Shown one piece after another: positions 1,965 to 51,564 of a DNA stretch of 64,000 bases. Numbering within the stretch: the first letter of the stretch is position 1; each line of letters starts with the position of its first letter. The notes under the pieces were generated by a model. That model ran no database searches and was not told the DNA's origin. It saw only the letters and a list, made by a program, of their open reading frames with translations. The stretch lies in contig OZ024755.1 of assembly GCA_964016885.1 (NCBI GenBank), forward strand, positions 6,510,001 to 6,574,000, written 5' to 3'. The position numbers and the translations under genes are program-made. The stretch comes from Eledone cirrhosa. Its lineage: Eukaryota.

Positions 1965-4900
1965 ATGAATATGTGTGTGTAGATGTATACGTGTGCATGC
2001 CTCTGTGTTTGTATTCATGTATATTTTATATGTATATATATATTTATGTTTCTTTCTGTGGCTTTTTTTAATCAACCGGTCTCCTATGGTAGAACAAGAT
2101 TCTTGCTTTAAAAATTATTCACCACATAGGAAATGTGACATGGTGACTTTATGATGACTTACTTCTTACTTCTTACCTAAAATATGTTTATACAATCTTT
2201 TTTAACGTAATCTCAGTCGTAGTTAGATGTATGATTAAAATATTCACTTCTCATTCTCGCGTTTGCAGCTTAGATGGCACATTTGTTCTGATACAGTATT
2301 CTCTCGTTGATTGACTCTTCATGAGATATGCATAGTCTTTCGTAAATCTCAAGTAGCTTGTTGCTTCCTCACCTGGTATCAGAGATATTTTTAAAGCATT
2401 GATTGACATGTTTACAGGCTGTGCTGTTACTTATAACCTACCTATGAATATTATCTTGACATAGCCTTACATATTACATTATGAACGAATAAAGAAGATT
2501 CTACCTGGTTGTTCAAGACGCTAGAAATTGTAGCCAAACATTTCTCAAGTCACAATCAATCGCCTTTAAAAGGAACAAAACCCATCAATAAATGGCAAAA
2601 TATGTTACTTATAGTCTGCGCAATCAGCTTTGATCTGGAGATAAACAAATACAAATTACACTGGCCAAACAAGATTGTTATGTCTTGTAAAATTCCTACT
2701 AACGAGATCAATGTGCTTCTTTATAATAGTTGTTTGCTTAATATACAGTTTATATTTACTAAGAATTTTAACTGTGTACTTAGTACGTAGCTTGAGGTCT
2801 TCAAAGACAAATTGAATTAGATTGGTGATTCGTTTCCGTTGTAACTGTATATAATCATATATGTTTCTAATTTCAACTATAAAAACGTATAGGGTGGTTC
2901 TGTACTACACAGAGTTTCTTGGTAAATAGTCTTGAAGGAATAGTAGAAGACACTTGCCAAAGGTGCCTCACATCATGTCTGTACCCAGAACCATATGGTT
3001 GTAAATTATATTCCTTAACAATAAGACCATATATAATTTCACATCTTCCTTAAATATATTCTTTTATAACGAAGCTAAATTATATAACGTTAATTAGATT
3101 GCTCGCTATATAGTCCATTGCAGAAGGCAGAACGATTTAACATGTGAACTAATTGAGAAAAATATAAAACAGAGAAAAACATTATAAAATACTTTAATAA
3201 TATATTGAAATATGGTGAGATCAAATACGCAATTTCCATGAAAGTACATGCATGAACCTTCTCTTTAGTACTTACACTCGCTTTTGTATTTCTTTGTCTG
3301 GGAAATAATTTAGATTACATAAATTGTCATTGGTTTCCTTTCTAATAAAAAATATCTAATTTTTACAATTGAATATATCAATACATTTCTCTCCGCTCAA
3401 TAAATTCAGGTGTTCCATAAACTCAAACTAATTATCATCTCCCATTGTTTTTAATCAAGCATTAACTGAGATTATTTCTTTTTCTCCGCTTTTTTATTAT
3501 ATAATTAGTTTTAATCTACGGCTAGTGTGGTATATATTAGGTAGGTAATATTGAGTATAGGTTTGCTTATGGATCACACACACACACACGCACACGCACA
3601 CACACACACACAAAATACCTTTAAGTTCACCATGAATAAAACAAGGTAAAGAAGAAAAGAAAGGTATATTTATTCGCAGTATAATAGTCGATAAATTATT
3701 TTACTATTTAGTCTATCATTGCTATTGAACTGAAATGATAGAAGAGAAGTTTTATTTTTAGATTTGTACGTTTGTTTTAAAAGCACAAGGGAGTATAACT
3801 GCCTATTTCTAAGGAATGAAATTCGGGGAATGCACGTTTGAGTAGATGAAGTACTAACTAACTTTCCAGCTATGCTTCAGCTGCTTTCGAGAAGTGAAGC
3901 AAGTGCAGAAGGAAATGATACCTTTCTTCAATGTTATAACTTAGCGGGAATAAATGAAATTGTCTCGAATTTCCTTTATGCGTGAGACTTGATGAAAGTC
4001 AATCTTCGCATGAATTTTCGTACAATCGTGTTTCCTATAATTTTAAAGGATATAAATATAGATAAAGACAAAAATAAAGAGAAGAGTATTTGATATAAAA
4101 TAAAGGCATAAGATTAAATAATGATATGACGAATGTGACCGAAAGCAAAGTAAGTGAAGAATGTTTATAAAGGAGCCCTAATAAATGCGAAAGGGGGAGA
4201 TGAAATAGAAGACGAATTTTTGGAGGCACTTAGAAAAAAAATATAGGTGCTTTCATCAAGTTGGTATTTGAAACTGGGTGCGGTTTTGAAGGTAATTATT
4301 TCTTAGTATTTGTCCAATATATCATCCTCATCACTGGCATCATTCTCATCAAATCCTGTTTGTATTTAAATTGAGAATTCACTAGTTTGTCTGCCGGGAT
4401 TTTTAGGATGGATGGATGGATGGGCGCATTGTTAGAATGATGGAAGAGGTACCTTGCACTTTTCAGTTACGTCCCTTTATGTAAGGTTATCTTTATCTTG
4501 ATCCTTTATGGGTGGATAAAATATATGCCAGTCAATATATTGAGTTTGGTGTAATAGAATGTTTTCTTCGGCTTGTATCTCTGTTAGATGTAAATCTTTA
4601 GTGCTCCGTTTAGAGAAGGAGAAAGCGAAAGAGAGAGAGAGACATAATGAGAAAGAGAGCAAAATAGAGTGAAGGAAAGCGTGTAAAATGATGGGTAACA
4701 TAAAAGAAGGCTCAGTTAGATGTTAGTTGTGTAAGTTGTGTGAGAAGTGAGGGAGAAAGAAACAAGTTCAGAAAGATCAAATTTCTCACAGTAATTATAG
4801 AAGCGGCAGAAATAATGAATGACATGATACGATAGGCCAGAGAATATCAAATATTTTCTGCAAGTGAAAGTCAAAAGCAATCAGGAACAATGGATATAAC

Positions 4901-5213
4901 ATTTACTAGAAAGAATACAAGAGATTGGATTGTTATATGTTAATTAACAAGGTGTTATTGAAGCAAAAAAACAGTGATAGTCGTAAATATAACAGCTTCG
5001 TAACAAGACAAGGGAAATATGTAACAGCGTATCTTATGTCAAAATGATTACACCAAAAGATAAATCACTGAGATTAATTGCTCAGAGACGTGATCTGCAG
5101 GGAAAACAATAGTGAAATTCGTGTTAACATATTTAATGTAGTTGGCATGAAAATCTAATTAGAAATAAAAACGTTATCTCAATTATTGATATTATTGTAA
5201 TACTTACACACAC

Positions 5214-5256
<43 letters not shown>

Positions 5257-5403
5257 ATCCCACATCTATAAGTAGTAAAATCGACGTAGAGTACTGAAGA
5301 TGGATTACACCTGATTGTGTAATTCTTGATTGTTGTGATGTAAGTCCATCACTGGAAATTAATTAACTATTGAAATAAGACAACTATATAAATATATATA
5401 TAC

Positions 5404-5591
5404 ATAATTGTTTCTACTTTTGGCACAAGGCCAGCAACTACCCAGTGTATTACTGGTACTTTAATTTATCGATCCCGTAAAGATGAAAGGCAAAGTTAAC
5501 CCCGGCAGGATTTGAACTCAGAATGGCAAGGGCAGTAACTCTATGCGTCAAAGCATGGCGTCCGACCCTCTACCGATACTGCCAATTCCCC
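5404..5591 (-). mobile_element. tRNA-derived SINE, family A
   Basis: Reverse complement has a tRNA-like head (TGGCAGTATCGG...GAGTTCAAATCC), central GCCTTTCATC...GATAAA...AGTACCAG domain and GTAGAAACAATTAT tail. Confidence 0.9.
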
Positions 5592-5638
5592 ATATGCATA
5601 ATGTGTGTGTGTGTGTATTTTATATATATATATATATA

Positions 5639-5670
<32 letters not shown>

Positions 5671-5844
5671 TATTATATATATATATATATTATTATATAT
5701 ATATATATTATTATATATATATATTATTATATATATATATATATATTATTATATATATATATATATATATATATTATTATATATATATATATATATTATT
5801 ATATATATATATATATATTATTATATATATATATATTATTATCA

Positions 5845-11450: not shown

Positions 11451-11718
11451 CTATCTAGGGCGGGTAAAATTCCCGAGATCCATGGACGAGTTCTCTCCAG
11501 CGGACTCTGTCCCTCATTATCGCTGCCATAACCTGCGTCTCCAAGAGACCAGTGTCTGTCCTTAGGACATCAACATATGTTAACCTCGGTCTTCCTCTTC
11601 CAGTGTGTCCATGCAGGGGGTTCCACAGGAGCACTGAATGCAGTGTCAACACTGGATGTCGGTGAGCATGTCCAGCTAACCTCAGTTTCCTCTGTGCTAC
11701 TCTTGAGCTGACTTTTGG
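11451..11718 (-). mobile_element. RTE-clade LINE 3' fragment
   Basis: Encodes LLWNPLHGHTGRGRPRLTYVDVLRTDTGL...RDRVRWRELVH; TAGA tail; matches 40120-40704. Confidence 0.9.
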
Positions 11719-11730
11719 ATTTGTATATAT

Positions 11731-11771
<41 letters not shown>

Positions 11772-11859
11772 TATATATATATAAATAATATATATATATA
11801 AATAATATATATATATTTATAAATAATATATATATATATATAAATAATATATATATATA

Positions 11860-11895
<36 letters not shown>

Positions 11896-39911: not shown

Positions 39912-40091
39912 GTTTACTCCAAATACTTGTTGAGTGCTTTATAATTGTTATAAAAATATTTGCTTGTTGTATCCCAACAATTTAAATAGAACTTTTGCAT
40001 ATATATATATATATATATACATTCATATATATATATATATATTATGGAATACTGTTGGCTTCTTGCTACAATAATTTCTATACTTGTCATT

Positions 40092-40119
<28 letters not shown>

Positions 40120-40122
<3 letters not shown>

Positions 40123-40704
40123 TTGGGAACAAAGATTGGGAATACGGAAGAAGATGTGACCGAGAGGAAGAGCAAAGCCTGGGCGGCGTGCAACAGCTTG
40201 AGATCGGTGTGGAAGTCGGATCTTCGTAAAGATCAGAAGATCCGTCTCTTCTTTGCTGTAGTGGGGTCTGTCCTGCTGTACGGGACTGAGACTTGGACAC
40301 TGACCAAGAAACTCACTCAGATGGTGGATGGGTGCTACACGAGAATGCTGAGGATGGCTCTGAACATTAATCAGTATACACTGAGGATGAAGAACCCAGA
40401 GCTGTACGGGTGCCTCCCAAAAGTCAGCTCTAGAGTAGCACAGAGGAGACTGAGGTTAGCTGGACATGCTCACCGACATCTAGAGTTGGCACTGCACTCA
40501 GTGCTCCTGTGGGAGCCTCTGCATGGACACACTGCAAGAGGAAGACCGATGTTAACATATATTGATGCAGTAAGGACAGACACTGGTCTCTTGGAGACGC
40601 AGGACATGGCAGCGATAATGAGGGACAGAGACCGCTGGAGAGAACTCGTCCATGGATCTTTGGAATTTTACCCGCCCCAGATAGATAGGTAGATAGATAG
40701 ATAG
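40120..40704 (+). mobile_element. RTE-clade LINE, 5'-truncated (RT C-terminal region, open frame) with (TAGA)n tail
   Basis: YLG...KAWAACNSLRSVWKS...KIRLF...VLLYGTETWTLT...RRLRLAGH...GRP...W: canonical RTE ORF2 C-terminus. The stop of sibling copies (CCCTAG/CCTTAG) is CCCCAG here. Confidence 0.92.
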
Positions 40705-47841: not shown

Positions 47842-48384
47842 TACGAACTTTCTAAATAACGAAATATTAGTGCAGTTGTTTATTTGTTTTGTTATTTTTT
47901 GTCTGTGATATGTGTTTGTGATGAATAGAGAAAAAGAGAGTCAGGAAGAGGGAAGGTGAGAGAGAGAGGGAGAGAGAGAGCGAATGAGTGAGTGAGAGGG
48001 GAAGAGCAGAGGGTGAGAGCAGATATGAACTTACTTCTCTCTTTCTTTCTCTCTCTCACACACACACACTCACTCTCTCTTTCTATCAGTACGTGTGCGT
48101 GTGTGAACTTAAGCACATTCATATTGTATGTAGACATATTGAGAAGCTGTATGATGTTTTTAAAAAATTTCATTGCGAAAGTATCGCTTTTAATTGTTTA
48201 CTGAGTTCAGTCAGTAGACTGCGGCCATGTTGAAGCACCGCCATAAAGGAATTTGTACGTGTGTATCTTCCGTAAGTTACCATTTCTACAACAAAATGTT
48301 GAGGTTAAATGCTGCTGAGGTCTTCTTTGCGTTTCACCATTTTGGTATCAATGAATAAGTACCATTCCAGTATTTTAATGCACC

Positions 48385-48467
<83 letters not shown>

Positions 48468-48471
<4 letters not shown>

Positions 48472-48671
48472 AACACAAAACATAACTACTCCATTACCAA
48501 AGGTTTCTGGATCACAGACGATAATAATATCGTTCGTCAGACAGAGATGTTTTAGATAAAAGGTATCTTTTATCTATAACATCTCTGTCTGACGAACGAT
48601 CCAGACGTATATTATTATCGTCTGTGATCCAGAAACCTTTGGTAATGGAGTAGTTATGTTTTGTGTTGTTC
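48468..48671. mobile_element. Fold-back palindrome (~95/105-bp arms, 4-bp centre) carrying a hammerhead
   Basis: Left arm is the reverse complement of the right arm except for a 10-bp gap and about 1 mismatch; follows (TA)n(GA)n. Confidence 0.88.
48576..48657 (+). ncRNA. Type I hammerhead motif
   Basis: CTCTGT-CTGACGA-AC-GATC-CAGACG..CGTCTG-T-GATC-CA-GAA-ACC-TTT-GGT-A-ATGGAG; outer ATAAC/GTTAT pairing; GUA site. The base of stem II is unpaired. Confidence 0.68.
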
Positions 48672-48743
48672 ACTTTCTAATTAAATAGCTCTGTTCTATA
48701 TATAGAGCACTCTTTTTTCCTTCGCTTTTCCTTTGGAATTACC

Positions 48744-48831
<88 letters not shown>

Positions 48832-48961
48832 GTTAAACAATATTCAATGATTATGTCAAAGAATGAGTTTTACAGTAGATTGGAAGCACTCAACGGTAAA
48901 TATAATTTTCTGGAGTTATTAATATTAAAATATAAGTATTAATAAAATAGATGTTCTTTTG

Positions 48962-49031
48962 ATCAATTACATTTTATTATACATATTTCGGATGTACAAC
49001 AGTACGTCCTCATCAGACAAAATATAATGAT
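48962..49031 (-). ncRNA. Minimal type I hammerhead ribozyme, apparently intact core
   Basis: Minus: ATTATATTTTGT-CTGATGA-GGACGTAC-TGTT-GTACATCC-GAA-ATATGTAT-A-ATAAAATGTAAT. 12-bp stem I, 7/8-bp stem II, self-complementary stem III, AUA site. Confidence 0.8.
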
Positions 49032-49128
49032 ACATGACATACCCTGAGATGTTAAATGGTTAAGATTTAATCAAGATAGTCTACCTTGATTAAATCTTAA
49101 CCATTTAATATCTCAGGGTATGTCATGT

Positions 49129-49198
49129 ATCATTATATTTTGTCTGATGAGGACGTACTGTTGTACATCCGAAATATGTATAATAACATGTAATTGAT
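49129..49198 (+). ncRNA. Mirror hammerhead copy with one stem I mismatch
   Basis: CTGATGA at 49144-49150, GAAA at 49171-49174; ATAACAT instead of ATAAAAT. Confidence 0.75.
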
Positions 49199-50354
49199 CA
49201 AAAGAACATCTATTTTATTAATACTTATATTCATTTCTATCTATATTCTAAAGTTATTTTAATGTTCGAATCCCGTTTTAAATACTTGAAATGTGTAAAA
49301 TATTGATGTTCTTGGAGAGGTTTAGTAACACGTGATATTGTCTCTATCGAAGCCGAAAGGACTAAATGTAAAGTTAACCTTACCAGGATTGAAAGCCAGA
49401 GCACAGAGAGCGAGAATACTGCAAATATTTTAATTCAACGCTCTAACGGCTTTCACATATCTGCAGTCCTCAGCAGTGATAAGTGATTAATACTCCATTG
49501 TAGGTTAGAGGTCGATTTTTATGAAATCAGAACTGATGAGGGCTGACATATATTCTAGTCTTGGGTTGAAGCCTAATCTTTCAAATGAGGTTTTGGCAAT
49601 ATTATATATGCGAGGTCACCATGGGAGATCAATGTGCTTTATGAGGCCTAGCATTTGTTGATCTCAAAACGAATTTAATGTATTATTTATGAGTAAGGAA
49701 AGCATAGTATAGGATTATTTCTTTAACGTGTGTAGTGATAATACATCTACTGTTGAAAGGGATTAATTTGTCATATCTTCATGAAATGGTGATCTCAGCG
49801 TCATTGTTCAGAAGCTTACAAGAAGTGAAAATTGATATCATTTGCATAGGAGCGAGTGTTGTTAGAAGTAAGAGCACGAAGATCGTACAACCTAAACTAG
49901 TGTGACTGTTGGTGTATAATTTTCAGGACCAGAATGATACATATGATATAGAGAAGGCTTAGGGGGCTATATATACCGTATGTTTTAATAGTTATTGTGG
50001 TTTAGCCCTTGGTCAAAATTGATCTAGCAGTCCTACCTTCAAAGATATTCGAAGTAAGTCTATGTCCACAGAGATTCATAACATTGAAAGGCAAGATTTG
50101 AGGGAGATTTTAGTTTTATTTCTAGCAGATTGGGTGTTCACCTAGAAGACCAGACATTGACTCAAATAACTTTAACATAATTTTGATAACGAGCCTAAAA
50201 TGAGTGTAATATGTCTTAGAGAAAATATAAGAGTGCTTGTGTATGTGTATGTGTATGTATATACGTATATACGTATGTGAGTGGTTCCGTGTGTGTCTGT
50301 GTGTATGTGCGTATGTGAGTGTTTCCGTGTGTGTATGCACGCGTTTGTATGCAC

Positions 50355-51441: not shown

Positions 51442-51561
51442 ATAATTGTTTCTACTTTTTGGCACAAGGCCAGCAATTATCCAGTGCATTACTGGTACTT
51501 TATTCTATCGACCCCGGAAGGATGAAAGGCAAAGTTAACCTCGGCGGGATTTGAACTCAGA
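51442..51561 (-). mobile_element. 5'-truncated SINE, family A
   Basis: Tail, core and B-box only. Confidence 0.85.
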
Positions 51562-51564
51562 TCA

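Follow-up and report, generated by a model that had tools for sequence, protein, structure and literature searches.

Geometry of the inverted repeat

What is the near-perfect palindrome at positions 48929-49231 of the window (the whole 64,000-nt stretch of Eledone cirrhosa DNA analyzed here), which carries a hammerhead ribozyme core on each strand, and how was it made? The original prediction described it from the letters alone as 147-bp arms around a 9-bp loop with 2 mismatches. We recover the same object as an inverted repeat with 151-nt arms, 98% complementary, around a 1-nt centre, with mismatched pairs at three sites (48973/49187, 49051/49109 and 49076/49084). The apparent 9-bp loop is the 1-nt centre combined with a G>A change at 49076 that is private to the window copy, since all 23 other copies of the exact junction read G. 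The predicted inverted arrangement is confirmed, with pLTR arms lying head to head, but the element does not start at 48929: the insert is bigger, about 48827-49231, as the left arm extends to about 48827 and into (TA)n. The insert is also asymmetric, with a tail of ~100 nt on the left arm that is absent from the right arm. The features of the locus are as follows.

48469-48746, unstranded: neighbouring element of a second hammerhead-core family, inserted head to head, whose cores lie near 48540 (-) and 48589 (+) and whose right arm bears the tail; distinct from the main palindrome, although the two share the microsatellite
48747-48786, unstranded: (CA)n, just before the (TA)n tract (sequence)
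48787-48826, unstranded: (TA)n target tract (sequence; (TA)n ends family-wide)
48827-49080, minus strand: left arm, assigned as a pLTR copy that begins at -64 (counted from CUGAUGA) and takes in the ~100-nt tail, reaching the long 3' end; outer boundary blurred by (TA)n
48827-48921, minus strand: tail, left arm only, which in tandem copies runs on into the 5' UTR and ORF start (sister-copy comparison)
48966-49028, minus strand: type I hammerhead of family-majority sequence, with stem I of 12 bp, core 49016-49010, stem II, GAA and AUAUGUAU; predicted cut after 48978 (sequence and folding)
49080-49081, unstranded: head-to-head junction of the -64 arm with the -63 arm, no spacer; the TCACT motif starts both arms, TATA box absent (sister copies)
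49081-49231, plus strand: right arm, assigned as a tailless pLTR copy that begins at -63 and stops at the short 3' end (+87) (sister copies)
49132-49194, plus strand: the other hammerhead, with its core at 49144-49150 and cleavage predicted after 49182; one stem I pair is broken by A>C at 49187 (sequence and folding)

A check for a target-site duplication found both insert ends running into (TA)n. The main palindrome element is inserted in the (TA)n that ends the tail of the 48469-48746 element, whose own family is abundant (1,897 first-look candidates), whose left core has a 10-nt deletion in stem II, and of which 2 of the 15 fetched loci adjoin related ORF remnants. Elsewhere in the window lie two diverged SINE-like repeat copies (49343-49403 and 51504-51564) and fragments similar to LINE ORF2 C-termini at 11455-11892 (-) and 40075-40692 (+); no host gene is evident among the window's ORFs of at least 120 aa.

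Hammerhead cores in both arms

Each arm contains, in order, CUGAUGA, a 20-nt stem II region, GAA, AUAUGUAU and A, and the complete core claimed for each strand is indeed present, at 49016 (-) and 49144 (+), with predicted cleavage after AUA at 48978 and 49182. The features of a type I hammerhead (CUGANGA, GAAA, NUH and stems I-III) are found, and AUAUGUAU is self-complementary, in agreement with the predicted short palindromic stem III. The two strands differ in their predicted folds. In the minus arm 12 of 12 positions of stem I pair (two as G-U) and 7 of 8 in stem II (one C-A mismatch), with a mean pair probability of 0.87-0.90 over stems I and II. In the plus arm 11 of 12 stem I positions pair and the mean probability is 0.07-0.24; the A>C at 49187 disrupts stem I and makes this copy the weaker predicted ribozyme. 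Monomer folding z-scores are weak on both strands, at -2.2 (minus arm) and -0.07 (plus arm). The minus hammerhead is the commonest form, with 138 occurrences among the collected loci (overlapping loci counted more than once), and the 49187 C variant has only 11 exact matches genome-wide. We considered this variant as the mark of a separate short-arm template and rejected it, as the 11 matches lie on tail and short arms alike and in differing subfamily backgrounds.

An Rfam scan of 48000-50200, the check proposed with the original prediction, returned zero hammerhead models at E<=10 and, under their cut-offs, hairpin miRNA models only. This lowers the Rfam family label and leaves the motif itself standing. 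The 39-nt core has 1,396 exact matches in the genome and its reversed control has 0, so the core is not a chance occurrence, and the anticipated genome-wide family that conserves it exists. The core is also kept across families whose stems differ.

The genomic family and its parent ORF

By sequence comparison, each arm corresponds to the end of a Penelope-like element (PLE) that bears the ribozyme (the pLTR); the element is of autonomous type and its ORF has Hydra-clade motifs. We regard the palindrome as almost certainly a pair of such pLTRs. In three sister loci (L032, L058 and L059) the pLTR is joined to a single RT + GIY-YIG ORF, bearing out the Penelope-like origin that had been proposed. 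An identical pLTR caps both outer ends of the inverted ORF remnants in L032, while L058, and likewise L055, reads 3' UTR, pLTR with hammerhead, tail, 5' UTR and ORF start in that order. The sister copies further display features of EN+ PLEs, namely a pLTR derived from a partial tandem, an inverted 5'-truncated copy and a one-sided tail. The exact tail-to-5' UTR pattern has 1 genome match, the pattern being too strict to count tandems. A genome search with the right arm gave 351 first-look candidates, of which 40 were scored, with full-length matches at 97-100%. The family was predicted to be young, and at a mean divergence of about 2.0% from the majority in 92 arms it is fairly so.

The element comprises an ORF of ~2.3 kb plus ~1.4 kb of 3' UTR and pLTR. 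A search with the RT piece gave 23,307 first-look candidates, of which 150 were scored; the matches listed (15 loci) include ORFs of 636 and 750 aa and no intact ORF. Motifs recognized in the ORF are RWR/RWK, DKT, YRDD, CNCRNKSNC, a C-terminal YKC..YIG region and CPLC..E..N..CLH, with RLRWRA in L055, RLKW in L058 and KSDKTNN representing the RWK and DKT features. At E<=0.001 the ORF has 189 homologous proteins, the best at 38% identity, the named ones coming from a bryozoan, a coral and Argonauta. Pfam gave no above-threshold match on the PLE ORFs, with a weak RVT_1 match (E 0.008, below cut-off) and no GIY-YIG hit; the endonuclease call accordingly draws on the motifs together with the 189 homologues. 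A 430-aa RT ORF in L031, considered as the parent, proved to be an unrelated LINE-type insert inside a copy, and the PLE-type ORF of L068 has marginal similarity only to the family ORF.

Two observations concern individual copies. L032 carries a ~300-bp tandem duplication in its 3' UTR that includes the ORF end (2449-3042 and 5198-5756). In L084, L095, L141 and L150 one foreign sequence, probably a SINE 3' end by resemblance, is joined at -12, and in L102 it lies inverted just past the predicted cleavage site; these joins likely reflect an insertion hotspot at ATTATA.

Ends and junctions of the sister copies

The sister copies come from 96 of the first 100 listed core matches (of 1,396), all on a single contig (C1) and at 78 loci; an intact core was required, which makes the sample a biased one. 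Among 115 arms, 35 read past -130 and 80 end within -129 to +3. The latter are strongly clustered: 21 of 80 lie at -64 to -62 and 16 at -57 to -55, where 1.8 would be expected in any 3 nt (p about 1e-14 and 4e-9, respectively), and 50 fall within -71 to -54. The A of TCACT falls on position -64, with a TATA box 20-21 nt upstream of it, and the spacing of TATA box and TCACT is kept in three divergent subfamilies while the spacer sequence changes. Together, the motifs and the end clustering point to -64 as a putative transcription start, and the window arms begin at -64 and -63. The pLTRs of A. vaga have been reported to carry a TATA box and TCACT at 20-bp spacing, taken to be a putative promoter (PMC3846280), and in D. 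virilis Penelope a promoter is described within the pLTR. The second 5' cluster, ~9 nt downstream (L081-L158, -57 to -55), may mark either another start site or RT halting before it reaches the cap; a similar offset seems to occur in the second family (L164-L172).

The arrangement of the arms is equally regular. By hand count over the first 100 listed matches, with a separate check of orientation, 16 pairs within 10 kb run minus-then-plus (11 of them within 400 bp), 2 are same-strand and 0 run plus-then-minus. The 3' ends are bimodal, at +86/+94 or at +202, both into (TA)n. With the window excluded, 35 of 37 direct junctions pair a tail arm with a short arm, 2 pair two short arms and 0 pair two tail arms. 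Within the 35 tail-plus-short junctions the arms are nested in 13, overlapping but non-nested in 16 (10 by at least 20 nt) and without overlap in 6, giving 22 of 35 non-nested, 16 of them with offsets of at least 20 nt. Where truncation is one-sided it affects the tail arm in 15 cases and the short arm in 3 (hand count; p=0.0075).

Junction positions vary widely among sister loci, yet the exact 33-nt head-to-head junction of the window occurs at 24 loci. In 12 of the 23 others the tail belongs to the -64 arm in 6 cases and to the -63 arm in 6, and three stem II variants occur, each locus being uniform inside. The junction therefore forms repeatedly and is not copied as a unit, since the tail sits on either arm across the three variants.

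A proposed two-site priming model and its alternatives

We propose that the head-to-head insertion was made in one event, by priming on both strands of a cut (TA)n tract, run-off and joining, and give this reading a probability of about 0.6. A partial-tandem source would be transcribed from the pLTR start, and the PLE protein would cut both strands of the (TA)n tract. Priming would occur at two fixed internal RNA sites (about +86/+94 and +202), much as the Poseidon protein PAc does in vitro; each cDNA would halt early or run off the RNA 5' end, and the two cDNA ends would then be joined head to head. Both arms would be primed cDNAs, with their 3' ends presumably joined by end-joining or by an RT template jump. 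In the window both cDNAs would have reached the RNA 5' end, which would require the tail cDNA either to displace its partner on a shared RNA or to be copied from another RNA of the same source. We also lean, a little less firmly, toward the head-to-head insertion being the default product of the family, with both target strands primed, two fixed leader sites, run-off at the start and joined ends. L1 twin priming, in which two primers on one RNA yield a head-to-head inversion, differs from the present case, where the two proposed priming sites are internal and fixed, overlap between the arms is frequent and this form accounts for nearly all junctions.

The main competitor retains the PLE origin and derives the mirror arm by self-priming or fold-back, one arm being templated on the other, with later central deletions producing the non-nested copies. 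We judge it unlikely, though far from negligible. An antisense-template version is in print (Arkhipova et al. 2013, PMC3846280), a hairpin spanning about -62 to -24 is predicted in the leader, and the window junction is nested, as are 13 others, so that the window alone is compatible with fold-back. The arms of one locus also have alleles in common: in 21 pairs, the window's among them, 20 minor alleles are shared within loci, compared with a mean of 6.6 and a maximum of 15 after shuffling (0 of 5000 shuffles reach 20), and the mean arm distance is slightly lower within loci (4.5 of about 100 nt) than between them (5.1, outliers included). Such sharing could come from gene conversion, and asymmetric later deletion in unstable palindromes could turn nested pairs into non-nested ones. 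What weighs against self-priming is that most junctions are non-nested, six of them without any overlap, while the short arm of most non-nested junctions still ends in the -55 to -69 cluster. The 15:3 bias of truncation toward the tail arm is likewise hard to reconcile with central deletion, which should be even-handed, and an arm starts near -27, where the leader hairpin would prime, in only 2 of 38 junctions.

The remaining explanations are far less probable. The original prediction of a non-autonomous fold-back retroelement, copied as a palindromic unit with the use of its ribozymes, can appeal to the exact junction at 24 loci and to a hammerhead core conserved in several families with changed stems. 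For this family it is largely refuted and very improbable: the pLTR belongs to an RT + GIY-YIG ORF, the junction re-forms independently with the tail evenly divided between the two arms, most sister junctions are non-nested and their positions vary widely, none of the other 23 loci has the window's G>A junction variant, the arms lack a TATA box and the read-through RNA is predicted to be one long hairpin. About as improbable is a full-length inverted insertion that collapsed later by deletion into a short palindrome. Long inverted copies of 2-6 kb do exist and long palindromes are unstable, but random deletion would not bring both arms to an end within 1 nt of TCACT in 24 loci, or gather 37 of 80 ends into two 3-nt windows. 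An assembly or chimeric-read artefact is the least probable of all. Among the matches listed, no contigs or reads bridge the palindrome centre or the right junction, and the unique right-flank contig begins at 49226, 6 nt inside the arm (three runs, one sample), with repeat-derived reads swamping the arms. Against this, the arms differ at 3 sites, their outer ends differ and are family-typical, the identical junction recurs elsewhere in the genome (23 loci), and raw DNA reads from other samples also contain joints that link family parts on opposite strands. The contig start at 49226 is compatible with an allele whose (TA)n tract is empty or with a break in the contig, and the insertion may be polymorphic.

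If two-site priming is correct, it would account in one step for the inverted pLTR, the one-sided tail and the 5' boundary of the pLTR, and would replace the antisense self-priming model. The family copies give it nucleotide-level predictions, in that transcription should start at -64, priming should take place at about +86/+94 and +202, and arms should occur in non-nested pairs. In the literature consulted, which included few subscription papers, we found no published statement of two-site priming with run-off for PLE inversions, and the origin of PLE inverted repeats and one-sided tails has been called open (PMC8557442, section 15).

Relation to known elements

The palindrome is ordinary retrotransposon debris of published architecture: inverted truncated pLTRs with a one-sided tail, opposite-strand hammerhead pairs and Hydra elements in Octopus are already in print. 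The ORF motifs of its family suggest placement in the Hydra clade of C-terminal EN+ PLEs (Craig et al. 2021, PMC8557442), which includes Hydra-1_Obim and Penelope-13_HM, the latter being recorded as having hammerheads on both strands and a 5'-truncated copy in inverted orientation. Common to both are RWK/R, DKT, the CxCX5C linker, CxxC and CxH around E and N, a C-terminal GIY-YIG-like region, (TA)n targets and a pLTR hammerhead. In contrast, the hammerhead sequence reported for Hydra-1_Obim is unlike that of our family, the 3' UTR is long here (~1.4 kb) and the unit exceeds the usual <3 kb (a typical, not strict, size), the tail is ~100 nt as opposed to 30-40 bp, and the window copy has no ORF.

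Head-to-head inverted pLTR insertions with a one-sided tail are described for EN+ PLEs (PMC3846280; Craig et al. 2021, Fig. 2). These insertions match ours in the inverted truncated pLTR, the tail at one end and the TATA box 20 bp before TCACT. The present pair differs in consisting of two bare pLTR stubs, and in that the statistics of its sister copies speak for two primed cDNAs rather than for the self-priming put forward in that literature. A biochemical parallel is Poseidon PAc (Frangieh et al. 2024, PMC11167929), which in vitro nicks and extends both target strands, acts on AT-rich targets, starts reverse transcription at two internal sites bounding the tail and can dispense with its hammerhead for insertion. 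The available part of that report leaves inverted arms and the 5' boundary unexplained, and its tail lies inside the ORF, whereas ours is upstream of it.

The hammerheads resemble those of PLEs and the min-HHRs (Cervera and de la Peña 2014, PMC4209133) in being type I, with a conserved core, a large stem II, a small palindromic stem III and predicted action as dimers; opposite-strand pairs 100-700 bp apart were already reported there for Schistosoma. They differ in a stem I of 12 bp as against 4-6, in having no unpaired base before G10.1, and in the presence of stem III/loop 3, which makes them a short-helix-III variant and not a strict min-HHR. Non-LTR retrozymes (bioRxiv 10.64898/2026.07.22.740005) are likewise protein-less and PLE-derived with a type I hammerhead, but form head-to-tail tandems with two hammerheads on one strand; the window element, an inverted pair with its two cores on opposite strands, is not one of them.

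Probable fate of the hammerheads

On folding predictions and comparison with related systems, the hammerheads here are probably inactive passengers. Their position, bounded by the start site on one side and the priming sites on the other, would cause them to be carried along. Being on opposite strands, the two cannot dimerise in one RNA, and related PLE hammerheads are described as showing little activity except as dimers or with protein, while that of PAc is dispensable in vitro. That a transcript from either strand would carry one ribozyme, as originally supposed, is doubtful, since the arms begin at the putative start site with no upstream TATA box. The companion claim, that full read-through would bury the ribozyme in a hairpin, is supported by predicted MFE values of -242 and -235 kcal/mol against about -10 for the hammerhead fold; such a hairpin, at about -240 kcal/mol, also argues for idle ribozymes. 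The DNA of 92 arms holds no RNA-editing footprint (9 A>G changes over 33 A sites, 14 T>C changes over 36 T sites), a comparison that is silent on transcript editing. The many short near-perfect hairpins of this kind would, if read through, be a predicted genome-wide source of dsRNA. At least three more hammerhead families have an identical core with an AT-rich stem I and a different stem II, and several of their copies lie head to head (L019, L055, L057, L093, L101, L110, L113 and L148).
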